Virus record (IMG/VR): IMGVR_UViG_3300022407_005896
Location: 1 to 34,461 of that record
Length of the DNA stretch: 34,461 bases
Reading direction: 5' to 3' (one strand)
DNA from: a virus
Taxonomy: Duplodnaviria > Caudoviricetes
The notes under the pieces: model-generated
Told to the model about the DNA's origin: nothing
Seen by the model: the letters and a program-made list of their open reading frames with translations, nothing else
Databases searched by the model: none
Translations under genes and position numbers: made by a program
Part shown: positions 2,797 through 25,382 of the stretch, piece by piece
Numbering within the stretch: position 1 is the first letter of the stretch
Layout: each line of letters begins with the position of its first letter

Positions 2797-3239
2797 GCCT
2801 TCGGAATCAGAGCCTCCATCTCCGCTGGGAGTTCGACGTTGAACCAGCCTTGCTTGCCTTGGCAGGGGAAGAAAGGCAGCTTCACGATACGGTCGATAAC
2901 CCAGCCAAAAGGGCCGGTGAACCACGGGGAGGCGCTTTCAGTCACGCAATCGCTGATGTGGATGGCTCCGATGATGCCGCCTGCTTGCCAGGCATCTTTA
3001 TCGAAGCTCCAGTCCGGTTTTGCCCACAGGAGATTCACAACGGCTTGGTTGTTGAAAAACAATGCTGAATTATCCATAACGAGCCTTCTGGCATTGAGGA
3101 AATCGGCCTGAGACACATCCAGATTGGCGTGAAGCAGAACCCATCCGCGAATATGCGTGCGCCGCGAGCGGTTCTCGATGTCTTTCCCGGCCCCCATAAT
3201 GAGGCCGCCCCAAATCGGGCGTGTCGAGATGGCTTTCAT
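2793..3239 (-). CDS. ASCH domain protein
   Basis: MKAISTRPIW..GKDIENRS..RGWVLLHA (GxKxxExR motif) and C-terminal GKQGWF. Confidence 0.88.
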   Translation of the reverse strand: MKAISTRPIWGGLIMGAGKDIENRSRRTHIRGWVLLHANLDVSQADFLNARRLVMDNSALFFNNQAVVNLLWAKPDWSFDKDAWQAGGIIGAIHISDCVTESASPWFTGPFGWVIDRIVKLPFFPCQGKQGWFNVELPAEMEALIPKA

Positions 3240-4387
3240 CAAGCCGCCCTCCTTTCCATCGCTGGCACCTTGCGGCGGTAGTCTTGGAGAGCCGTCGTGA
3301 AGTGATCCTTGCGCAGGCCTCCGGGCAGTTCAGCCATCAAGCCGACATCACGCAGCACATCACGCACGAGGGACATGCCTCCGCCTTTGCTGGCTTCGAG
3401 GGCGATGGTGTTTTGCAGTTCATCGGCCTGGGGGCAGCGCTGCCAGAGTTTCGGGGCAAAGTCGGCAACGAGGGACTTCGTCACTTCGAGCTTCACCACA
3501 CCCACCGAGCGACCGAGGAACTGCTCGGCGTCTTCATCGCCTCGCTTCGAGCGTCTGACGAGGCGCTCATACTGACCTGGAAAGAGGCAAATGAGGAGGT
3601 TCACTTGAGTCTGGTTTAAGAGCATCTTGAGAAACTCCAGGCCGCGACGGCTGAAGTTCGATAGCTCTTCAATGGCGAGGGTGCCGTGGGCTTTACCGAG
3701 CTTGCTGATGATGCTCTCTTGCAGGCTGGAGGCGGACTTCTCATCGAGATCACGCAGGCGCAGGGCCTTGGCGATGCCGGTGAGGAAGGCACGATAGCTG
3801 CCTTTCAGATCCGGCGTGGCGTTGAGGTGCCAGGCGACTTTGCCTTGAGCCTTCAGCTTCGCAAGCGTGGCGCTCTTCCCACAGCGAGTGCGGCCAATGA
3901 GGAGCACGATGCGCTCTTCGAGTTCCTCTTCGTTGTTCGATTCGGCATCTTCCAGGTACTCGCACACTTCGGTGAACTCCGGGCGCATCACAAAGCGGTC
4001 ACTGAGCGGGACAATCGTTCGACGGCCCTGAGCGGCTTTTTCGAGGCCTTCTTTGCCTTTCGTGATGAGCGTATCGAGCTGCTGCGTGATCTTCACGAGG
4101 CCGCGTTCGGTGCTCGGCACCGGATAGCCACCGTTGAAGAGCTGGTTCCAGCTTGAGCCGGGCATGATGGCCCCGCTGAATTGAGAATCACTCTGTGAAA
4201 GGGCGATTTGCATCTCCTTGGCGCGGGCGATCTTTTCGCGCCAGGCCTCGGGCAGGGCGTGAAACTTCTCAGCGTGTTTCGGCTGCCAGCAGAGCGGCGC
4301 GGCGAGGCGCTCTTCGGCTTCAGGGTGGTTGTGATGGAGGGCGGGCATGGGAGGCGTTGTTGTTGGTTGCATGGAGGGTGTGTTCAC
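3239..4387 (-). CDS. MuB-like AAA+ transposition ATPase
   Basis: Walker A GRTRCGKS, Walker B-like LAIEE; directly downstream of and overlapping the transposase. Confidence 0.85.
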   Translation of the reverse strand: MNTPSMQPTTTPPMPALHHNHPEAEERLAAPLCWQPKHAEKFHALPEAWREKIARAKEMQIALSQSDSQFSGAIMPGSSWNQLFNGGYPVPSTERGLVKITQQLDTLITKGKEGLEKAAQGRRTIVPLSDRFVMRPEFTEVCEYLEDAESNNEEELEERIVLLIGRTRCGKSATLAKLKAQGKVAWHLNATPDLKGSYRAFLTGIAKALRLRDLDEKSASSLQESIISKLGKAHGTLAIEELSNFSRRGLEFLKMLLNQTQVNLLICLFPGQYERLVRRSKRGDEDAEQFLGRSVGVVKLEVTKSLVADFAPKLWQRCPQADELQNTIALEASKGGGMSLVRDVLRDVGLMAELPGGLRKDHFTTALQDYRRKVPAMERRAA

Positions 4388-6534
4388 GCGGCGGCTTTGC
4401 GGAGTTGGCGCAAGGCGGCGCGGGAAAGGGTTTCGCGTTCGCTGGTCGTCGTGGTGGCGATGGCCTGGGCGAGTTCGCGGCTGGCATCGGGGGCGGGCAG
4501 TTCGGGCACGTCATCGGCATCGGCGGGCTGATTCCGCAGCGTGTGAATGGTCTGCGTGAGTTCAGCTAGGTCACCCACACGCTTCTGTGCATCGCGGCGG
4601 CGGTTCGTGAGGCGCTCGGCGATGCCGCTGGCCTGTTTGAGGGCTTTGATCTGCGCTCCGAGCATCTGGTGCAGGCCGTCGATGTCCTCATGCGTGGGCG
4701 TGCCGCTGTGCGTCATGTGGCCCAGGAGCTGGCGGGCCTCATTGAGGATCCACGCACCGCATTCGAGGTGATCGGTGTTCAAGCGGGCGATGACTCGCGT
4801 GCCGATCTCCACGCCTGGAAGCAGGCCGGAGAGACGCACCTTTTGTTTCTCGCGGCCTCGGCGCACTTCGATGTCGAGCACGTCACCGCCTTTGTAGAGC
4901 AGGGCCTCGCCCTTCCAAGTTGTGCCCTCATCAAAGAGCAGATCGAGCATGGCCTCGCGGCTCAGGCGCTGCATGCGCGGCATGTTCAGCGCCATCTTTT
5001 CGGCGGGCGTGATGCAGCGGGGGGAGCCTCCTTGATTGAGCCACAGCTCTTGCAGCTCTTTCGGCACCAGGGAGAAGGTTTTCAGATGCTCTTCAAAGCC
5101 GTGCAGCGTGGCGAGCTGCGGATGGAGAGGGATCATGGCAGAGCCGTGGTCGTAGCTGAAGAAGCGGACTTCCTCGAAGCCTTCAAGCCGGTGATCCTGG
5201 CGATGATTCAGCAGCTCGATGGCATCGCTCACGAGCCAATGCGCTTCACCGGCCCATTCAAAGGGGAGGGCCAGCTTGGCGCGGGTCTCGGCGGTGCATT
5301 TGTCGAGCAGCTTGAGGAGGCGATTGCCGAAGGCCTGGCGGGCATCAAAGGAGCCGGGCTTGCTCCAGTAGTCGCTTCCCATTTGGCCTTTCACGCCACC
5401 GAGCACGATGTCGAGCGCGGCGAACCACACTTCCAGCCAGCGCTTGCCGCGATAGTTTCCCCATCGCTCTGGAAAGCCGCTCAAGGTGAAGTCACCCACT
5501 TGAATGCCGGTGCGTTTGATCTTCACGCGGCCATGCGTCACGAAGCTCACGAGGTTCTCGCACTCGGTGCTGACCGCTGCCGCCGCATTTTCGACAATCC
5601 AGGTCTGCGTGAAATCTTGCGGCACGCCGTAGGTGCCGAGAACGTGAAACATGAGGTGTTGCATGTCCCGGTGCTCAAAGGCCACGAAGGTGCCGTCCTC
5701 ACGTTCAATGCGGGGCTTGAGGCCAAAACTCACAATCATGCGGGTGGCCACGTCCATGACGAAGAGGCCCCACATCTCGACGAGCTGCACGCCGCGCCCT
5801 GGCACATCGACGAAGACTTTGAAGTCAAGGCGATGGTCATCCACGACGAGCCATTCCATCGGCTTGAGCGTGCTCAGATCCACGCGGACTTCCGGCAGAT
5901 GCGGCCAGGCCTCGAAGCTGCCTTTGCGGGCGAGCAGGTTCACCACTTTGGCGGGCTTGTGACGCAGGAAGGTGGAGAGGCTCCATCCTGGAGGCGGGCG
6001 ATGGATCGACCACGGGCACACGGCAGGTGGCTCGCGGAAGGGATAGGCAGCGGCGTAGAGATCCCGCCAGGTGCCCGCGTCTTCGATGCTCTCACCGGAG
6101 ATCAGCTCACGAAGGATGCTCTTCCAGCTTTCGGAGAGGCCGCGCTTGTCATTCGTGGCCACGCGGCCTTGCCAGCGCTGAATCACGGCGGCGGTGAGGA
6201 TGATTTCGCGCTCGGTGGCCGTGCAGCCTTCGAGACCGCATCCACCGCACTTGCGGTGATCGACGAGGCCCGCCGCGCCCAGGATGGCAAAGCGTTTGTA
6301 ATACCACCGGCGGAGCGTTTCCGCCGAGCGGCTCGTGCGCTTCGCGATGGCGGTGATCGCGGGCAGCTTCTTCGCCGCCGCCGCGATCTCCTTCATCAGG
6401 GGGAGCAAGGCGAGGACTTCGTTGCGGGCATCCTGCGGCAGCTTGGGGAGCGCTTCGGAGAAGCTCACACGCGGCACGGTGAGCGCGGTGCTCGTCGTGG
6501 TGATGAGAGCGGGAGAGTGGTCGTCGCGGTCCAT
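4384..6534 (-). CDS. Mu-type (MuA-like) DDE transposase
   Basis: HTH SAETLRRWY, GLVDHR, WLVVDDHRLD, VMDVATRMI, WIVENA, GKRWLEVWF; start placed at ATG 6534. Confidence 0.88.
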   Translation of the reverse strand: MDRDDHSPALITTTSTALTVPRVSFSEALPKLPQDARNEVLALLPLMKEIAAAAKKLPAITAIAKRTSRSAETLRRWYYKRFAILGAAGLVDHRKCGGCGLEGCTATEREIILTAAVIQRWQGRVATNDKRGLSESWKSILRELISGESIEDAGTWRDLYAAAYPFREPPAVCPWSIHRPPPGWSLSTFLRHKPAKVVNLLARKGSFEAWPHLPEVRVDLSTLKPMEWLVVDDHRLDFKVFVDVPGRGVQLVEMWGLFVMDVATRMIVSFGLKPRIEREDGTFVAFEHRDMQHLMFHVLGTYGVPQDFTQTWIVENAAAAVSTECENLVSFVTHGRVKIKRTGIQVGDFTLSGFPERWGNYRGKRWLEVWFAALDIVLGGVKGQMGSDYWSKPGSFDARQAFGNRLLKLLDKCTAETRAKLALPFEWAGEAHWLVSDAIELLNHRQDHRLEGFEEVRFFSYDHGSAMIPLHPQLATLHGFEEHLKTFSLVPKELQELWLNQGGSPRCITPAEKMALNMPRMQRLSREAMLDLLFDEGTTWKGEALLYKGGDVLDIEVRRGREKQKVRLSGLLPGVEIGTRVIARLNTDHLECGAWILNEARQLLGHMTHSGTPTHEDIDGLHQMLGAQIKALKQASGIAERLTNRRRDAQKRVGDLAELTQTIHTLRNQPADADDVPELPAPDASRELAQAIATTTTSERETLSRAALRQLRKAAA

Positions 6535-6535
6535 G

Positions 6536-6575
6536 AGGGTCAAAGGGTCAAAGGTCAAAAAGGTCAATCAGGTCA
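6536..6575. repeat. Short-period GGTCA-core tandem repeat between polX and transposase
   Basis: agggtcaaagggtcaaaggtcaaaaaggtcaatcaggtca. Confidence 0.8.
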
Positions 6576-7190
6576 CCGCTCCCAGGGTTCGAGGTAGGGC
6601 AGGCCAGCGAGGGCGAAGACATCCTGCTCACTGCGAGCGAGGATGAGACCGCCGGGAGAGAGGTCATCACGGCCCGTGGCCGCACAGGCCTTTTCAAGGT
6701 CATCCACCGTGAAGCCGCCGTGATACGGAGCCCAGGCGAGGCCGCGCTCTTGAGCAGCCTGAGAGAGGCGGATGTTATTCTCTTTGCTGCCCGTGCGGCA
6801 CACGAGGTAGTTCCAAAAGCGTGGCACCTGGATCGAGAAGAAATCCAGCGGGATGCCAGAGGCCACATGCACCGCCAGCTTGTTTTGCTTGCCCCAGGCC
6901 ATGCCACCCTGCGCATTGAGGCGCGGCTCAATGATGCGGTCTCTCAAGAGGCTCTCAAGAGCAGCGTCGGTGAGATCCCCTTCGCGGGTGAAGAGGCCAT
7001 CCTTCACCGGGCCAAACGCGGGCGAGTAAACGAATTCGATGTCGCCCACTTCCGCCTTGCGGCGGCGGAGAGATCCCGCCACACGCAGCCAGGGCTTTCC
7101 TTCACCATCTTTGGCACAGGCAGGCTCAAGGTGAGGAAGCAGCTCACGCACCACGGCCTTGGCTTCATCGGCGGAGAAACGGCGCTTCAT
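6573..7190 (-). CDS. polX: Minimal family X DNA polymerase (Pol beta-like palm and thumb only)
   Basis: VAGSLRR..VGDIEFV, IPLDFF, RTGSKENN, SEQDVFALAGLPYLEPWER; 205 aa; no PHP or 8-kDa lyase domain. Confidence 0.9.
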   Translation of the reverse strand: MKRRFSADEAKAVVRELLPHLEPACAKDGEGKPWLRVAGSLRRRKAEVGDIEFVYSPAFGPVKDGLFTREGDLTDAALESLLRDRIIEPRLNAQGGMAWGKQNKLAVHVASGIPLDFFSIQVPRFWNYLVCRTGSKENNIRLSQAAQERGLAWAPYHGGFTVDDLEKACAATGRDDLSPGGLILARSEQDVFALAGLPYLEPWER

Positions 7191-7444
7191 AGAACAGGCA
7201 CCTCCCGCTTGGTGAAGTTGTCTTCGATCAGGCTGAGCACCGAGAAGCCATTCGGATCGCTGGCGCGCTTCTCGTGAAGGTACACAGAGCCACAGCATTC
7301 GGTGCGGAATTCATTGCTCGCGCCATGCTGCACGAAGTCTGGCTGGTATTGACCGCAGATGCATTGGCAGCCTGTGAGAACGCCTCGACGCGTGGCCTCG
7401 GTGATGAGTTCGAGAAAGGGGTGGGTAGGTTCGCCGGAGTTCAT
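7187..7444 (-). CDS. Small Cys-rich (putative Zn-ribbon) protein
   Basis: CQCICG...TECCGS; ATGA overlaps at both ends. Confidence 0.65.
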   Translation of the reverse strand: MNSGEPTHPFLELITEATRRGVLTGCQCICGQYQPDFVQHGASNEFRTECCGSVYLHEKRASDPNGFSVLSLIEDNFTKREVPVL

Positions 7445-12659: not shown

Positions 12660-12688
12660 ACCGCGCTCCTCACGGGCGCGGTTTTTTT
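12660..12688 (+). terminator. Rho-independent terminator closing the repressor operon
   Basis: ACCGCGCTC-ctcac-GGGCGCGGT followed by a T-tract. Confidence 0.85.
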
Positions 12689-12722
12689 ATGCCTGCGAAG
12701 CTCGGAGGCTCTGACCTCGAAT

Positions 12723-12770
12723 TAACGGCGCTTCCGGCGGCGTGAAGTCAGGCCCGTGTGAGGCCAGGCT
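12723..12770 (+). promoter_or_regulatory. Late promoter motif copy 1 (lysis operon)
   Basis: TAACGGCgcttcCGGCGGCGTGAAG then CAGGCT; motif repeated at 20755 and 25384. Confidence 0.7.
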
Positions 12771-12908
12771 CACCTCGCTCCCGCATGGGGCAGCCTTGGA
12801 AACAAGGCGGCGCGGCGTGGGCGTGGTTTTCTCGGGAAGTTTTTCCGCGATCCGCGCCGCGCCGAATGCGGGAAAGATCAAAGCTGAAAGATCAAAGATC
12901 AAACCATC

Positions 12909-17535: not shown

Positions 17536-19725
17536 ATGAACTTTTCTACCCGCTTCAAAGCCGCTCTCGGCACCCTCTTCAATGTCAAAGGTTGGCAGCA
17601 GGCATGGGCACGCGGGGAGGATGTGGGCAGCCTCGGCGGCGGCTCATCATCCTCCCGCTTTCATGAGGCGGCCTCGCAATCCGCGTGGGTTTTCCGCTGC
17701 CTCCAGCTCATCGCCGGTCCCATCCGCAGCGTGCCGCTCGAATGGTATGAGCCTGGCTCCGATGAGCAGGATGAACTCAATGATCCAGAACTGAGCACCT
17801 TCTGGCGACGCCCCGCCATCACGAGCGGCGGTGTGCGCTTGAGCCTCGGGGATTTCATCGAACTTTCCTGCCACTCCATCGGCCTGCATGGGCAGGCGTG
17901 CTGGATTCTGGATGACACCTGGCTGACACGCGGCGGGGTGAAGTCTCCTTTAATCCTGGCCCGTGCGGATCGACTCACAGCCATCAAGCGAAACGACGAA
18001 CTCCTGGGCTGGCAGTTCATCGACGGCGCGGGCCGGGGTTATCAGCTTCTCCCTCAGCAGGTCATCCGGCCCCGCTTCCTCAATCCCTATGATGATGTCG
18101 AGGGCCTCGCCCCGATGGCCGCCGCCTGGAATGCCGCCGCTGGTGATCATGCCGCCGGAGTCTTCGCCCGAAACATCGCCAGTGCGAACGGAGACCAGGG
18201 CGTCTATGTGGTGAGCAAGAGCGGCACACTTACGCCAGAGCAGCGTGACCAGGTCATTGCCCAGCTCCGCCAGAAGGCCGCGCTCGCCAAGCGCGGGGAT
18301 TTCCGCGCTGCCTTCCTCACGGCGGATGTCTCCATTGAAGATCCGAAGATCAAGACGGTGGATGATGCCTTCTTGAATGGCCGCCACTTCTCGCGGGATG
18401 AGATCGCCGCCGCGTTTGGGGTGCCTGCCTCCATGCTGCAAAAGATGGAGAGCTATTCCATCGGCGCGGCCTCGGATCGCTACCGCCTCATTGATGAGAC
18501 CTGCGTTCCGATGGCGGCCCGCCTGGCCGAGGCCATGGGTGAGATTGAGCGACTCCGCACAGCGCGGGACCTGGAAGCCGCCTTTGATTGGTCCGCGCAC
18601 AGCGTCATGAGCCAGGTGCGCAATGAGAAGGTCAAAGCCGCCGCCGATGCCTGGAAGTGCGGCATTCCCTGGAAGGTGCTCAATGAGAGCATGGATCTGG
18701 GGCTGGATGAGTTTCCCGGCTATGACAAGGCGTGGTTGCCGATGAGCTTGGAGCCCGTGCCGGGCAATGAGGAAACCAGAATGAGGAATGAGGAATCAAG
18801 CCCGAAGCCCGAAGAGATCACCGAGCCGAAAGCCCTCCTTCGCTCCAACATCAAGACGCTGGATGGCATGGTGAGCGTGCTCGAAAAGCTCGCCGCACAG
18901 CCGTCAATCCCGTCAACCACGTCAACGAAGTCGGAAGCGAACGCCAAGCGCCTGCGCCTGTGGAAATCCCACATGGCCGCCCGAGCACCTTCGGAAAAGC
19001 TCTTCAAGGCGAAGATCACGAAAGCTCTCATGAAGGCCCGCGCCGAAACGCTGGGGAAGATCGAGAGCAGTGAGAAGGCGCTCGCAGGCATCCGCCAGCG
19101 CGGCGTGCTCGACCTCATCTTCTCGCTCGCCGATTTCACCGCCGCGCTGATCACCGATCTCCGCAAGGCTCACGAGCAAACCCTGGCCGATGCCACGGGG
19201 CAGTTCCTTTTGGAGATCGCCCGCGAGGATGATCCGTGGAAGATGGAAGCCACCCAGGTGCTCAACTTCCTCACTAGCCGCGAGAACCTCATTCGTGACG
19301 CCTCCCGCGAGATGCATCAGGACATCTTAAAGACCCTTGAAGAAGGTCTTCAGAAGGGCGAAACGACGCAGCAGCTCGCTTCCCGTGTGCGCACGGAGTT
19401 CAACGGCCTCAGCAATGAGCGGGCCGTGATGATCGCCACCACGGAGACCGGCGCGGCCTATGGAGCCGTCCGCCATGCGGCCACCGAAGAGCTGGGCATC
19501 CCCTTCAAGCAATGGCTGAGCGCTCAGGATGACCGCGTGCGGGCCACGCACCGCCGCATTGATGGCACCATCGTTCCCACGGGTGAACCCTTCCGCGTGC
19601 CTCTCAAGGATGGCGGCGAGGATCTCATGATGCACCCCTGTGACAGCGGCGGCAGCGCCGAGAACGTGATTCAGTGCCGCTGCGTGGAGATCCCGATGAT
19701 GGAAGAGGATGTGCCGGAAGAGTGA
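17536..19725 (+). CDS. HK97-family portal protein fused to Mu gpF/SPP1 gp7-like head morphogenesis domain
   Basis: VFRCLQLIA, GLAPM, EIAAAFGVPASML (portal); RAVMIATTE, KQWLSAQDDRVRATH, ENVIQCRC (gpF). Confidence 0.88.
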   Translation: MNFSTRFKAALGTLFNVKGWQQAWARGEDVGSLGGGSSSSRFHEAASQSAWVFRCLQLIAGPIRSVPLEWYEPGSDEQDELNDPELSTFWRRPAITSGGVRLSLGDFIELSCHSIGLHGQACWILDDTWLTRGGVKSPLILARADRLTAIKRNDELLGWQFIDGAGRGYQLLPQQVIRPRFLNPYDDVEGLAPMAAAWNAAAGDHAAGVFARNIASANGDQGVYVVSKSGTLTPEQRDQVIAQLRQKAALAKRGDFRAAFLTADVSIEDPKIKTVDDAFLNGRHFSRDEIAAAFGVPASMLQKMESYSIGAASDRYRLIDETCVPMAARLAEAMGEIERLRTARDLEAAFDWSAHSVMSQVRNEKVKAAADAWKCGIPWKVLNESMDLGLDEFPGYDKAWLPMSLEPVPGNEETRMRNEESSPKPEEITEPKALLRSNIKTLDGMVSVLEKLAAQPSIPSTTSTKSEANAKRLRLWKSHMAARAPSEKLFKAKITKALMKARAETLGKIESSEKALAGIRQRGVLDLIFSLADFTAALITDLRKAHEQTLADATGQFLLEIAREDDPWKMEATQVLNFLTSRENLIRDASREMHQDILKTLEEGLQKGETTQQLASRVRTEFNGLSNERAVMIATTETGAAYGAVRHAATEELGIPFKQWLSAQDDRVRATHRRIDGTIVPTGEPFRVPLKDGGEDLMMHPCDSGGSAENVIQCRCVEIPMMEEDVPEE

Positions 19726-19726
19726 G

Positions 19727-19820
19727 GGGGAACGAACCAGCTCTGCCGACGGCGGGCGTAACACCTACGCAACCATGAAAGACACCATTCGAGCCGTTGG
19801 CAGCAGTGTCATTGTTCGGC
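19727..19820 (-). mobile_element. attC-like recombination site 1
   Basis: Minus strand: GCCGAAC-aatgac-ACT[G]CTGCCAACGGC...GCCGTCGGCAGAGC-tggttc-GTTCCCC. Confidence 0.75.
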
Positions 19821-20020
19821 TTCGTCGTCGCCCTTTGCGCGATCAAGTCACCTACTGGCGCGAACTCTGGATGAAAGAGAATGTCGAGCGTCTGAGGCTA
19901 AAGGATGCCATTGAAATCACGCTGCGGCAAAATGCACATCTTACAGACGGTGACGTTTGCACACTCAAGATACTCAAGGACTCCATTCGTGAGCCGAACG
20001 CAGAGGTATCCCACAAATGA
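19775..20020 (+). CDS. Cassette 1 gene, hypothetical 81-aa protein
   Basis: ATG inside the site 1 loop, stop inside site 2; lower GC. Confidence 0.7.
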   Translation: MKDTIRAVGSSVIVRLRRRPLRDQVTYWRELWMKENVERLRLKDAIEITLRQNAHLTDGDVCTLKILKDSIREPNAEVSHK

Positions 20021-20095
20021 CAGCCGCCTCAACGCTTCCGCTTCGCACCAACACTGCCACGGCTGGCATTTGTTGGGATCACCGTCTTGTTCCCC
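19993..20095 (-). mobile_element. attC-like recombination site 2
   Basis: Minus strand: GGGGAAC-aagac-GGT[G]ATCCCA[A]CAAATGCCAGCCG...CGGCTGTCATTTGTGGGATACC-tctgc-GTTCGGC; two extrahelical bases. Confidence 0.85.
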
Positions 20096-20253
20096 TGCGG
20101 GGGGATGGCACGTTGCAGTAGCGCCAGCACGAAGGCCGAATGATCTGGGGTGGACGAGCCAGAGCACCAATCGTAGGCCGTGGATCGCGGCAACCCGAGG
20201 GCGATGAGGTCGGCGGGCTTGACGGGTATGGCAGCAAGAGAGTCGTGAAACAT
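20029..20253 (-). CDS. Cassette 2 small HTH (Cro/XRE-like) regulator
   Basis: KPADLIALGLPRSTAYDWCSGSSTP; ATG 20253. Confidence 0.7.
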   Translation of the reverse strand: MFHDSLAAIPVKPADLIALGLPRSTAYDWCSGSSTPDHSAFVLALLQRAIPPQGNKTVIPTNASRGSVGAKRKR

Positions 20254-20258
20254 GGCGC

Positions 20259-20328
20259 ACCCTACCACCAAAGAAAAATCCGACAATCGGAAAGTCGTTC
20301 TTGCAATGGTCCGACAATCGGACACAAT
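20259..20328. promoter_or_regulatory. Divergent leaderless promoters with two TCCGACAATCGGA operators
   Basis: Palindromes at 20279-20291 and 20310-20322; TTGCAA-16-CACAAT (+) and TTGTCG-16-TAGGGT (-). Confidence 0.7.
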
Positions 20329-20334
20329 ACCCGC

Positions 20335-20595
20335 ATGAGCGAACCAAAATCATTCCAAGAAAAATGCCTTTCAAAATTCAGTGCCGACTTCGAGGCGGCG
20401 GCGGACAAGATCGCGGCGAGGTCCAAGAAAGACCCCGAAGGTAAATTTGTGGTCTTCGTGGACGGCATGGATGGCGATGTGTCTGGGGACTGGATTGCGG
20501 CGACCATCGCGGTCACTTACGCCTTTCGCCACGGGGCCACCGAAGTAGTCCTCAAACGGTGGCCTGAGCAGGGGAACAAAGAGCTGAGCCGCTAG
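20335..20595 (+). CDS. Cassette 2 hypothetical 86-aa protein
   Basis: MSEPKSFQEK...QGNKELSR; ATG 6 nt after the -10 box; stop inside site 3. Confidence 0.7.
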   Translation: MSEPKSFQEKCLSKFSADFEAAADKIAARSKKDPEGKFVVFVDGMDGDVSGDWIAATIAVTYAFRHGATEVVLKRWPEQGNKELSR

Positions 20596-20635
20596 CGAGC
20601 CTTGGCGAGTCTGTCGGCTCCAGCGGGAGTTCTCT
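20571..20635 (-). mobile_element. attC-like recombination site 3
   Basis: Minus strand: AGAGAAC-tccc-GCT[G]GAGCCG...CGGCTCAGC-tcttt-GTTCCCC. Confidence 0.75.
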
Positions 20636-20648
20636 GGGGAATGGTATC

Positions 20649-20674
20649 AAAGCGGACGAGGGCGTCCGCGCTCC
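20649..20674. repeat. REP-like palindrome copy 2
   Basis: Identical to 14377-14402. Confidence 0.85.
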
Positions 20675-20682
20675 ACGATAAA

Positions 20683-20753
20683 TCATTCGGCCTTCCTCAT
20701 TCTGGTTTCGACATTCCCGCCGAAGGCGGGCCGTTCCCGCCTCCGGCGGGCCG
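20683..20753. repeat. Heptamer-period repeat with two CCCGCC-NNN-GGCGGG hairpins
   Basis: tcattcggccttcctcattctggtttcgacattcccgccgaaggcgggccgttcccgcctccggcgggccg; near copy at 25332-25382. Confidence 0.85.
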
Positions 20754-20807: not shown

Positions 20808-21632
20808 ATGTCCGAACGCCTCGCCCGCCTCATCACGCCGGAAATCAAAGTCATCTCCGCGCAAGACTTCACCGTCGATTACATCGCCAGTGATGCCACC
20901 CTAGATTGCTACAACGAGGTGCTCATCGCGAAGGGGGTGAAGTTTGATCGCTTCGCCAAGAATGCGCCCTTTGTGGATTCGCATGATTACGGCACGATTG
21001 AGAAGCTGCTCGGCAGTGTGATCGAGTTCGGCGTGAAGGCCGGGAAGGTCGTGGAGCGCGTGAAGTGGGCGGCGGATGTCTCGCCCCTCGCCGCGCTGGG
21101 CTTCAAGCTCACGGAGAGCGGCCATCTCAGGGCCGTGAGTGTCGGCTTTATCCCGGTGAAGTATGCGTGGAGCGGCTCACCCGAGTTTGCGGCCATGGCG
21201 AAGGAATGCGGCATGGACATCGAGACCGCCGCGCAGTGCCGCTGCATTCACCGTGAGTGGATGCAGATCGAACTTTCCGCCTGCATCATCGGCGCGAACC
21301 CTTCCGCCCTGGCGAAGGCCTTCAAAGACGGCGCTCTTCAAGAGCGAGACCTGGCCGCCATCGGCTTTGCCGGTGACAATGAATTTGAGTTCCTGCAACT
21401 GGCCGCTGGCTCCTATGACGGTGCAGACGCTTTGCAGCGCCTGCAAATCAAGCTCGAACTCCAGCGCATCTACCGCGCCCGATCCCTTTCCTCCGCAAGC
21501 AGCAGCACGCCTCACCATCATGCGCCTGGCGGCGATGGCGAGGCCAAACGCCAGGCTGAACAGCGTGCGGCGGATCTCCGAGAACTCGCAGCGGCCCTGA
21601 AGGCCGTGCCGCGTGTTCCGGCGGCCTCGTGA
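20808..21632 (+). CDS. HK97-family prohead protease
   Basis: IASDATLD, PFVDSHD, LRAVSVGF, IELSACIIGANPSA. Confidence 0.9.
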   Translation: MSERLARLITPEIKVISAQDFTVDYIASDATLDCYNEVLIAKGVKFDRFAKNAPFVDSHDYGTIEKLLGSVIEFGVKAGKVVERVKWAADVSPLAALGFKLTESGHLRAVSVGFIPVKYAWSGSPEFAAMAKECGMDIETAAQCRCIHREWMQIELSACIIGANPSALAKAFKDGALQERDLAAIGFAGDNEFEFLQLAAGSYDGADALQRLQIKLELQRIYRARSLSSASSSTPHHHAPGGDGEAKRQAEQRAADLRELAAALKAVPRVPAAS

Positions 21633-21685
21633 CCGCCCTCACGACGTTAGCGAACCCACCTCATTCAAACTCATCCTTCCATTTT

Positions 21686-22963
21686 ATGAAGCTCAAGCAT
21701 CACCCACTCTTTCATTCCGATCCTGAACTCAACGGCGGCGGCCTCGGTGAGGTCATCGCCGGTGTCAAAGACATCAAAGGCACGCAGGAAACCCTGCTCA
21801 AGAATTACGACCAGCTCGACGGCAAGGTCAAAAAGGCCATGGAGGAATTCACCACCCTCAAGAATCAGCAGGCGGATCAAGGCGAGATCCTGCGCAGCAT
21901 GCAGCGTCTTCAAAAGACGCTCGGCATGGAGCGTCGGAACCTCTTCGGCTCTCCCGCCAAGCGCATCGCTTACGACGAAGAAAAGCGTAACCTCTTTGTC
22001 GCTCGCCTGTGCCAAAGCCTGGAGATCGTCGAGCGTGCGCCGAAACACATCCGCGCCATCTGCAAGGATCTCGACAACGCCAACACGCCCGGCTCCACCT
22101 ACATCGCCAACAACGAGCTGGAGCGAGACATCTACGACCTGCTCGCCACCTTTGGTGTGTTCAATCAGTTCGATGTGCGCATGATCGGGGCGAAGGCCAC
22201 CGAAGTGCGCCTCAAGACGGCCCGCGTGGCTGCCGTGTTCGTGGATGAAGCCGCCGCCATCGGTGCGGATTCCACCAAGGCAGGTAGCAAGGTGGCCGTC
22301 ACTCCCGGCAAGATCGGCGCACTCATCAGTGTGTCGAGCGAGCTGCTTGAAGATGACGTGGGCGGCCTCGTTGAGGACGTGCTCAACGACATCGCCGAGA
22401 GCATCGCCTTCCGCATCGACTGGATCGCCATCGCAGCCGATGGCGGTGCAGACAGCACGGATGGCGGCTTCACCGGCATCATGGGCGGTGGTGGCACGGA
22501 TCGAACCGCAGCCAGTGGCAATGTCAGCATCGCCACGCTCGATTATGAGGACGTGCTGGCCTGCGTGACGAACCTGCCTGTGGGCCTGCTTCAACGCGGC
22601 ACCGCGAAGTGGCTCATCAATCCGACCATTCTCGCGAAGATGCTGCTCATCAAAGGCACGGATGGCCGCCCCATCTTCAACACCCCGCTCGATGCACCCA
22701 GCTACGGTGGCCTGGGCACCATCTTTGGGTTCCCCGTCGTCACCAGCCCTGTGTGCCCCAGCACGGACAGCGCCGGTGCCCGCGTGGCAGCCTTCGGTGA
22801 TTTCAGCGCGGAGGCCATCCGCATCCGCCGAGGCATCACCTTCGACCGCTCGGAGCATTGGGCCTTTGACACGGACGAGGTCACCTTCCGTGGCACTGCC
22901 CGTGCCGGAGCCCGCGTGAAGGCGGCCACCGCCTTCCAGGTGCTCAAGCTGGCCGCCTCGTAA
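21686..22963 (+). CDS. Major capsid protein, HK97 fold
   Basis: N-terminal coiled-coil delta domain, KIGALISVSSELLED, KGTDGRPIF, IFGFPV; ATG 21686. Confidence 0.93.
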   Translation: MKLKHHPLFHSDPELNGGGLGEVIAGVKDIKGTQETLLKNYDQLDGKVKKAMEEFTTLKNQQADQGEILRSMQRLQKTLGMERRNLFGSPAKRIAYDEEKRNLFVARLCQSLEIVERAPKHIRAICKDLDNANTPGSTYIANNELERDIYDLLATFGVFNQFDVRMIGAKATEVRLKTARVAAVFVDEAAAIGADSTKAGSKVAVTPGKIGALISVSSELLEDDVGGLVEDVLNDIAESIAFRIDWIAIAADGGADSTDGGFTGIMGGGGTDRTAASGNVSIATLDYEDVLACVTNLPVGLLQRGTAKWLINPTILAKMLLIKGTDGRPIFNTPLDAPSYGGLGTIFGFPVVTSPVCPSTDSAGARVAAFGDFSAEAIRIRRGITFDRSEHWAFDTDEVTFRGTARAGARVKAATAFQVLKLAAS

Positions 22964-25260: not shown

Positions 25261-25382
25261 CCCGGCTCCGCCGGGAATGAGGAAACCAGAATGGCGAATG
25301 AGGAATAGCAGCGCGGACAGCCGCGTTCGCTTCATTCATCCTTCCTCATTCTGGTTTCGACATTCCCGCCTCCGGCGGGCCG
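25261..25382. repeat. Inverted pair of heptamer-period repeats with terminal GC hairpins
   Basis: gaatgaggaaaccagaatggcgaatgaggaat ... ttcattcatccttcctcattctggtttcgacattc. Confidence 0.85.

Follow-up and report, generated by a model that had tools for sequence, protein, structure and literature searches.

We find that a Mu-like phage carries, within its head operon, what is probably a back-to-front array of three attC sites and two mobile cassettes without an integrase, likely rearranged by an integron integrase (IntI) acting in trans, a reading in which, judged from sequence, we have good confidence. Integrons are regarded as bacterial devices, in which the fixed polarity of the cassettes lets Pc read the gene. 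The DNA analysed here, which we call the window, is the whole of a linear virus record of 34,461 bases without host flanks, and the array lies between the genes for a portal-gpF fusion protein and a head maturation protease, where the first-pass annotation had placed it.

The phage is a transposable one, as had been proposed, since it encodes a Mu-like AAA transposition protein (3239-4387, minus strand; phrog_296) and a Mu-like transposase (4384-6567, minus strand; phrog_310); the Pfam matches to Gam and Gp27 in the window are weak, and a terminase is also encoded. The label ‘prophage’ was not borne out, the record being a linear virus contig from which host flanks are absent, and no Mu-type TG...CA ends with host DNA were recognised in this linear and incomplete record. 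Its right end is cut in the tail region, and its early operon appears to be complete, since this leftward operon meets a gene for a Dam-like methylase (77-1057). The ORF that adjoins the transposase in the early region (6573-7298, minus strand) encodes a thumb domain of DNA polymerase beta (PF14791). In the head operon, the portal protein fused to a Mu gpF-like domain (17536-19725, plus strand; PF04860, PF04233, phrog_2662) has a stop codon that finishes two bases ahead of the first attC site, and beyond the array come the head maturation protease (20808-21632, plus strand; phrog_617) and, directly after it, the HK97-type major capsid protein (21629-22963, plus strand; phrog_4523, PF05065). 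Relatives of the protease were found in 26 genomes, mostly of Verrucomicrobiota, with named relatives from Chthoniobacter and Luteolibacter, and the phage host is probably a member of the Verrucomicrobiota. Relatives in viral contigs were obtained by an alignment-based search, a single-sequence search having given none. L108, which is the window itself, was excluded from all counts.

The three inverted repeats that had been noticed are present at 19727-19820 (site 1, 94 bp), 19993-20095 (site 2, 103 bp) and 20571-20635 (site 3, 65 bp, a short head hairpin), all on the minus strand, which is their top strand, with predicted crossovers at 19732|19733, 19998|19999 and 20576|20577. With three attC sites within 909 bp and no integron integrase in the record, the locus is a CALIN. 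On the minus strand, each site parses as R''(7)-spacer-L''(8, one extra base)-loop-L'(7)-spacer-R'(7), and its R'' and R' boxes contain the AAC and GTT cores. The spacers of sites 1, 2 and 3 are of 6/6, 5/5 and 5/6 bases, and the L boxes pair at 6/7 positions (one mismatch), 7/7 and 7/7. Extra bases are found on the plus (bottom) strand at T19797 and C19804 in site 1 and at T20073 and C20080 in site 2, and a T-N6-C spacing of the extra bases, on the arm opposite AAC, is common to all three sites. As far as the accessible text of the sources goes, this anatomy is that of classical attC sites in its R and L boxes, unpaired spacer and two extra bases on the R''-L'' arm (PMC2727003, PMC5027507, PMC3053210), and in its A|C crossover and the complementary outer boxes of cassette ends (PMC2727003, PMC5027507); sites with T-N6-C spacing are described as efficiently excised by IntI1 (PMC3053210). 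Cury 2016 is a further source on the anatomy of the sites and their polarity. Unlike in classical cassettes, the first extra-helical base is C and not the usual G in all three window sites, and it is also C in 11 of 21 training sites that adjoin intI.

Two scores were used to weigh the sites against chance. A heuristic score was compared with 20 dinucleotide shuffles of the window, of which none reached 14 and about one match per window reached 10; on this scale site 2 (17.5) is far above chance, and sites 1 and 3 taken alone (9.5 and 9.0) are near it. REP-like elements with AAC/GTT ends and a bulged stem, which mimic attC sites, were seen at L029:5878-5974, L151:7828-7904, L228:4857-5018 and L045:3260-3368, and have a high heuristic score but not a high covariance-model score. 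The covariance model (R1) is our own and not that of IntegronFinder, and was trained on 22 intI-adjacent sites from bacterial genome bins, thus avoiding circularity; two-sided changes occur in 12 of the 13 stem pairs of its training alignment (A5), in which one row has the opposite, wrong strand and a few sites come from possibly prophage-borne arrays (L232, L236). This check, which the first-pass annotation had called for, supports the sites: they are the top three of 8 matches in the window, at exact coordinates and all on the minus strand, with 40.5 bits for site 2 (E 6e-9) and 28 bits for site 1 (E 1e-5). Site 3 by itself is weak (9.7 bits, E 0.54; plus-strand fold z +1.1) and is therefore identified by homology to sites elsewhere, its close homologues reaching 17-24 bits. 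The default filters of the covariance model overlook short sites, so that solo sites are possibly undercounted. A search of the window against Rfam gave no match. Site 1 is 70-79% alike to host-type attC arrays with canonical genes in genomes G103 and G178. At the level of sequence, then, the three repeats are confirmed as attC sites.

The ends of the segments between the sites are complementary, as had been claimed, over 8 nt (19814 with 19992-19999) and 10 nt (20089 with 20568-20577). The lengths of the circles predicted earlier, 266 and 578 bp, stand, and their coordinates shift one base to the left with the crossover between A and C of AAC. Cassette A (19733-19998, 266 bp, minus strand) comprises site 1 and the body of ORF A; cassette B (19999-20576, 578 bp, minus strand) comprises site 2, a helix-turn-helix (HTH)-like gene, a divergent promoter-like region and ORF C. 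The reconstituted circle junctions fold with z of -3.3 and -6.5, and none of 200 shuffles was equally stable. The low GC content that had been suggested is true of cassette A (53.8% versus a window value of 61.1%; an equally low content is seen in 2.3% of 266-bp windows) and not of cassette B, which at 58% is unremarkable.

ORF A (19775-20020, plus strand) encodes 81 aa of no known family, with its ATG in the loop of site 1 and its stop in site 2, the AAC of which it reads in frame. As judged from synonymous and non-synonymous codon changes (10/4 and 15/2), its plus frame is under purifying selection, and all three minus frames contain stops. The called ORF was one of 103 aa (19709-20020), whose start we moved to 19775, matching the homologues, and a 34-aa ORF (20017-20121) with an ATG that overlaps the ORF A stop is antisense to the HTH-like gene and unsupported as a gene. 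All Atlas matches to ORF A were under 0.9, and neither ORF A nor ORF C nor the HTH-like ORF could be assigned to a family of Pfam, NCBIfam or PHROGs. The last of these ORFs (20029-20253, minus strand, 74 aa), which is canonical in orientation and has its end within the loop of site 2, likely encodes a small helix-turn-helix regulator; HTH clusters are among its Atlas neighbours (0.89-0.90), which is no more than a lead, and it differs from its relative in L252 by 10/5 synonymous/non-synonymous changes. Two identical 13-bp palindromes (20279-20291 and 20310-20322, plus strand) surround a -35-like TTGCAA and a -10-like CACAAT, and 20279-20328 is likely an operator pair with a rightward promoter. 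Paired palindromes of different sequence are in the same places in L253 and L254, in which the -10-like box is CATAAT; the box of the window is one base worse than in three relatives, and in a promoter scan the 20279-20328 region was below threshold. Across the cassettes with an HTH gene and divergent promoter (window, L252-L254), the palindromes vary jointly with the HTH sequence, possibly marking a mobile family of self-repressed promoters. ORF C (20335-20595, plus strand) encodes 86 aa, belongs to a small family of unknown function and stops in the left arm of site 3, which has no start codon; it reads the AAC of site 3 in frame. Six long proteins among its 23 matches (adhesin, fibronectin and cadherin-type repeat) were dropped as chance. 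In related arrays, 7 of 48 cargo ORFs encode DNA methyltransferases and 1 of 48 an Acb2/Tad1 domain; the latter type of cassette ORF, with an Acb2/Tad1 hairpin domain, lies at L261:6556-6864.

The polarity of ORF A and ORF C is inverted, which the first-pass annotation overlooked. In a canonical cassette the gene is coded on the top strand with attC last, whereas both of these ORFs are on the bottom strand and, unlike classical cassettes, each unit has attC at the 5' end of its rightward gene. Because the units carry attC on the left, the plus strand must be the bottom strand, a conclusion independent of the covariance model. The inversion is partial, since the HTH-like gene of cassette B is canonical. 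Inverted ORFs that start in their own site are found in 32 of 48 phage segments and only 4 of 24 segments of bacterial intI-adjacent arrays, 14 of which have canonical ORFs; 22 of the 32 inverted phage ORFs read AAC in frame. All four segments of L241, an array of unknown context, are inverted. One phage-style inverted cassette also lies in an otherwise canonical bacterial array (L230, between sites 7000-7127 and 6719-6806), hinting at exchange between phage and bacterial pools. Synthetic attC sites in protein linkers (Nivina 2020, PMC7439510, accessible text) similarly double as coding sequence, but the arrangement here is natural, and a site supplies its own gene with the N-terminus and the gene upstream with its C-terminus and stop.

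Each of the two cassettes is found again in other phages, where the homology breaks off at the AAC/GTT core, and the attC reading, the cassette boundaries and the mobility that had been proposed are all upheld by this. Cassette A is present in L193 with 84% identity over 19730-19999 (BLAST) and different neighbours on both sides; L189, L190, L192, L194 and L195 are near-copies of L193. It is also present in L196, where its attC has a 30-nt deletion. L193 and L196 represent two other phage lineages. The homology ends at GAAC on both sides, and six ORF A homologues share a common body followed by six different tails after REPN (codons CCG AAC). P0128, the sole ORF C homologue extending that far, likewise diverges right after PEQGN. 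In all three relatives of cassette B (L252, L253 and L254), homology begins at the AAC of site 2; the HTH-like gene and the pair of palindromes are retained in these relatives, whose rightward genes are different ones. The units thus move with ends at G|TT. The R'' of cassette B covaries with its far end across relatives; more generally, the outer 4 nt of R' match the next R'' in 65 of 76 inter-site segments (22 arrays) and their own in 5, compared to a shuffled expectation with a mean of 3.6 and a maximum of 12 in 5000. One attC family is joined to varied gene bodies in both orientations (ORF A, L113, L188, host arrays), which gives a handle on cassette genesis.

The first-pass annotation had also suggested a comparison of the locus in related phages for empty or different-cassette alleles, and these exist among distant relatives, as solo sites in L109 and L001 and as other cassettes in L113. 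Sites occur at 4 of 117 distinct portal-protease junctions (window, L113, L109 and L001, the window included), and in a quick tree the site-bearing junctions fall in one supported clade of seven rows, three of which (L082, L110, L006) have no sites. The first R box lies at most two bases after the portal stop in the window, L113 and L109. L113 has a head hairpin, one complete cassette and one cassette with a decayed site, and its first site is without a right arm. The site of L001 has no model match and was kept for its likeness to that of L109, and heuristic-only matches in the portal-protease gaps of L029, L087, L095 and L175 were dropped as unsupported by the covariance model. Insertions of 1.7-3.9 kb without supported attC occupy this gap in L085, L087, L091, L095 and L005, and the gap may be a general hotspot for accessory genes.

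Close strains show a different kind of boundary. Their contigs (92-98% identical; runs X2, X3 and X5) depart from the portal gene at 19703 into repeat or other sequence, and in X6 a single 151-letter contig of depth 2.2 joins 19689-19719 to 20683-20733 (19719 to 20683, 55 letters). The breakpoints are thus off the cores, 13-29 nt to the left and 48 nt to the right of the array, and the right piece overlaps a repeat. Breakpoints away from the cores had been named beforehand as grounds for giving up the integron reading, and this is the case only in part: the closest strains diverge off the cores, whereas cassette breakpoints elsewhere are on them. The off-core breakpoints suggest that the block was gained or lost whole, and it likely entered or left the strain group via ordinary phage mosaic recombination. 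No circle, excised allele or cassette-skipping joint was found among the run contigs, which drop rare forms; the cassette bodies are uncovered in runs X2-X6, and absent cover alone proves nothing. Run X1 is not independent of the window and is possibly its source. Short repeats at 18766-18813, 20641-20720 and 25280-25360, the first of them within the portal gene, are common to many contigs of the same runs, and assemblies break at such repeats.

Site 3 belongs to a type of 60-66-bp hairpin with 86-95% identical copies in 10 other loci; a pattern search for the type gave nine viral loci. In two lineages, L197/L203 and L200/L202, it is the only site over 18-19 kb, and in L196, L198, L199, L201, L204 and L205 it stands at the head of an array. 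L200 and L201 form an empty/filled pair in which the flanks match and one 382-bp cassette differs, with both breakpoints at the AAC of a hairpin 94-95% identical to site 3. Similarly, a 727-bp methyltransferase cassette and a swap distinguish L204 from L205, with breakpoints at AAC. IntI is absent from the records of L200, L201, L204 and L205, of which that of L204 is complete. A matching far boundary, exact and mostly with AT-rich attI-like sequence after it, is found in 14 of 14 arrays whose head is a long attC, but in 0 of 13 short-headed loci within 96-696 nt; within 2 kb, 11 of these 13 have no body end, and in one lineage there is a match at 1448 nt, to a GC-rich 7-mer. Beyond site 3 of the window, no matching cassette end or attI-like boundary was found within 2 kb, and without a partner end the hairpin could not be excised as a cassette and would be stranded. 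The far end of the array is a perfect complement of the head R'' in 2 of 7 fully seen arrays and has 1-2 mismatches in the other five, the window included. Short sites also occur as ordinary cassette-borne attCs (L261, L264). On balance we lean towards site 3 being also an entry point that replaces attI.

The array would then work as follows. IntI would fold attC on the plus strand and cut between A and C, and attC x attC recombination would excise circles of 266 and 578 bp, leaving site 3 stranded as the fixed head of the array. With the genes inverted, the cargo would be read from the phage transcript and would be silent behind a host Pc, and cassette B would add a likely self-repressed promoter aimed at ORF C and the protease-capsid genes. 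A broader proposal, for and against which we see about equal weight, is that Verrucomicrobiota phages run a mirror-image branch of integrons, in which cassettes start in their own attC and stop in the next, a hairpin of ~60 bases replaces attI, and the IntI comes from the host or a helper. If this is true, any cassette order would be translated from the phage transcript, and an integrase-free phage would tap a shared pool of methyltransferases, Acb2/Tad1-like sponges and promoter-repressor units. Similarly, if the head hairpin accepts cassettes, phages could sample counter-defence genes free of both attI and integrase. Here phages use the same sites with the gene turned round, and the point of crossover is given exactly by alleles that occur naturally in empty and filled form.

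A rival explanation, which we consider unlikely, is that the block is a relic: its cassettes would have been assembled at a true attI beside intI in another phage and the block moved, after which there was only loss, via attC x attC excision or slippage, and site 3 would be the stranded attC of the last cassette and accept nothing. The off-core divergence of the close strains is in keeping with this, as are the intI and AT-rich attI-like boundary of related Mu-like phages, the decayed sites of L113 (no right arm) and L196 (30-nt deletion), and the empty/filled pairs, which give no direction as between insertion and loss. Furthermore, no insertion into resident attC was seen in Vibrio cholerae among 15 sequenced clones in the accessible text of 10.1101/2022.09.11.507474, so that empty alleles may be excision products only. 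However, different cassettes abut the same head hairpin (L204/L205; window/L113), which on loss alone needs long ancestral arrays with different losses; a matching far boundary is found in all long-headed and no short-headed loci; and the solo hairpins L109, L197/L203 and L200/L202 retain perfectly paired outer boxes. Nor do they resemble, on the published description, the products of attG insertion, which would leave a target-derived R' and a cassette body, whereas the solo site-3 hairpins have no matching body end.

The preferred reading, exchange by an IntI in trans, requires a source of the enzyme. The array is integrase-less as had been stated, tyrosine recombinases being absent from the record (no PF00589 match), which is linear with its right end cut. 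With the TIGR02249 cut-off as the definition of IntI, the expectation of intI in the host group was partly borne out: it is encoded in 12 of the 26 genomes with a related protease, and in G002, which has the closest prophage, none is over the cut-off. In the family of G002, a likely host family, 47 of 121 genomes have IntI over the cut-off, as does G103, whose array is like site 1. It was found in 0 of 14 virus records tested alongside the 26 genomes and, from 50 of 79 loci, in 2 of 50 related virus records, with two weaker. A Luteolibacter marinus prophage contig encodes an IntI of 254 bits, below the 265 cut-off, with IntI4 (2A3V) as the best solved relative. In L240 (1920-11467), L257 and L258, the early operon holds, in this order, the transposase, the AAA protein, inverted cassettes and intI, followed by genes that we take to be GemA/Mor-like; in L256 this arrangement can be followed as far as intI, and nine sites adjoin intI in L255. 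The earlier suggestion of a host integrase in trans therefore stands in that integrases are common in the host group, but since related phages carry integrases, the trans-acting enzyme need not be chromosomal. We would place about two thirds of the likelihood on a host chromosomal IntI, the other source being a co-resident integron-bearing phage. If the head hairpin accepts cassettes, they would plausibly be sampled when host IntI is induced by the SOS response.

Much less probable than the relic is that attC-derived hairpins are recombined by something other than IntI, through short homology or slippage at GAAC cores or a phage recombination protein. At the L200/L201 junction the CGAAC core amounts to a microhomology of 5 nt, IntI was found in none of the 14 virus records tested, and Qi et al. 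raise illegitimate recombination for the capture of phage attC (PMC9892861, accessible text). Against this, exchanges occur at the same base in unrelated contexts and at both ends, the position and strand of the extra bases match integron sites, the same cassette style adjoins intI in related phages, and in the same source 5 of the 6 phage attC sites tested were recombined by IntI1. That the hairpins are REP-like host repeats or chance palindromes without cassettes is largely refuted, and very improbable, since 2 of 145 host-family genomes contain the site-3 type, at one copy each, not the many copies of a REP-like element, and there are model matches, end complementarity and mobile units with exact ends, even though REP-like inverted repeats, some mimicking AAC/GTT hairpins, flank the locus (20641-20717) and the heuristic puts sites 1 and 3, each by itself, near chance.

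Integrase-less attC clusters in phages have already been published, with 17 CALINs in 10,705 phages (Qi 2023, PMC9892861, accessible text). The window resembles these in its attC cluster, small ORFs and absence of an integrase in the phage, and the related arrays resemble them in DNA methyltransferase cargo; the inverted polarity seems to set it apart, the published main text describing typical cassette structure or divergent sites. That main text contains no inverted polarity, attC start codons, empty/filled alleles or transposable phage, its CALINs being listed in the supplement. Our search of the literature, outside which most subscription journals fall, yielded no report of inverted cassettes in phages or of a head hairpin that stays fixed. 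Isolated attC sites or small CALINs away from the integron, with IntI in trans, have been described as SALINs (10.1101/2022.09.11.507474, accessible text), and the locus is like these; it is unlike a complete integron in that the record has no intI, attI or Pc. What the locus would add is a late-operon position in a transposable phage and empty/filled evidence at an apparently attI-free head hairpin.

Further features were noted at array ends and head hairpins of the related phages. The array ends of L188, L193, L253, L254, L257 and L258 have AT-rich attI-like boundaries with a shared look after GAAC, and several of the phages with such boundaries have no intI. Tandem short repeats of 9-10 bp directly follow the solo hairpin of L001 (8320-8445). 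L113 has the head hairpin once more in its tail region (12680-12819), half-decayed and with an identical flank on the downstream side.
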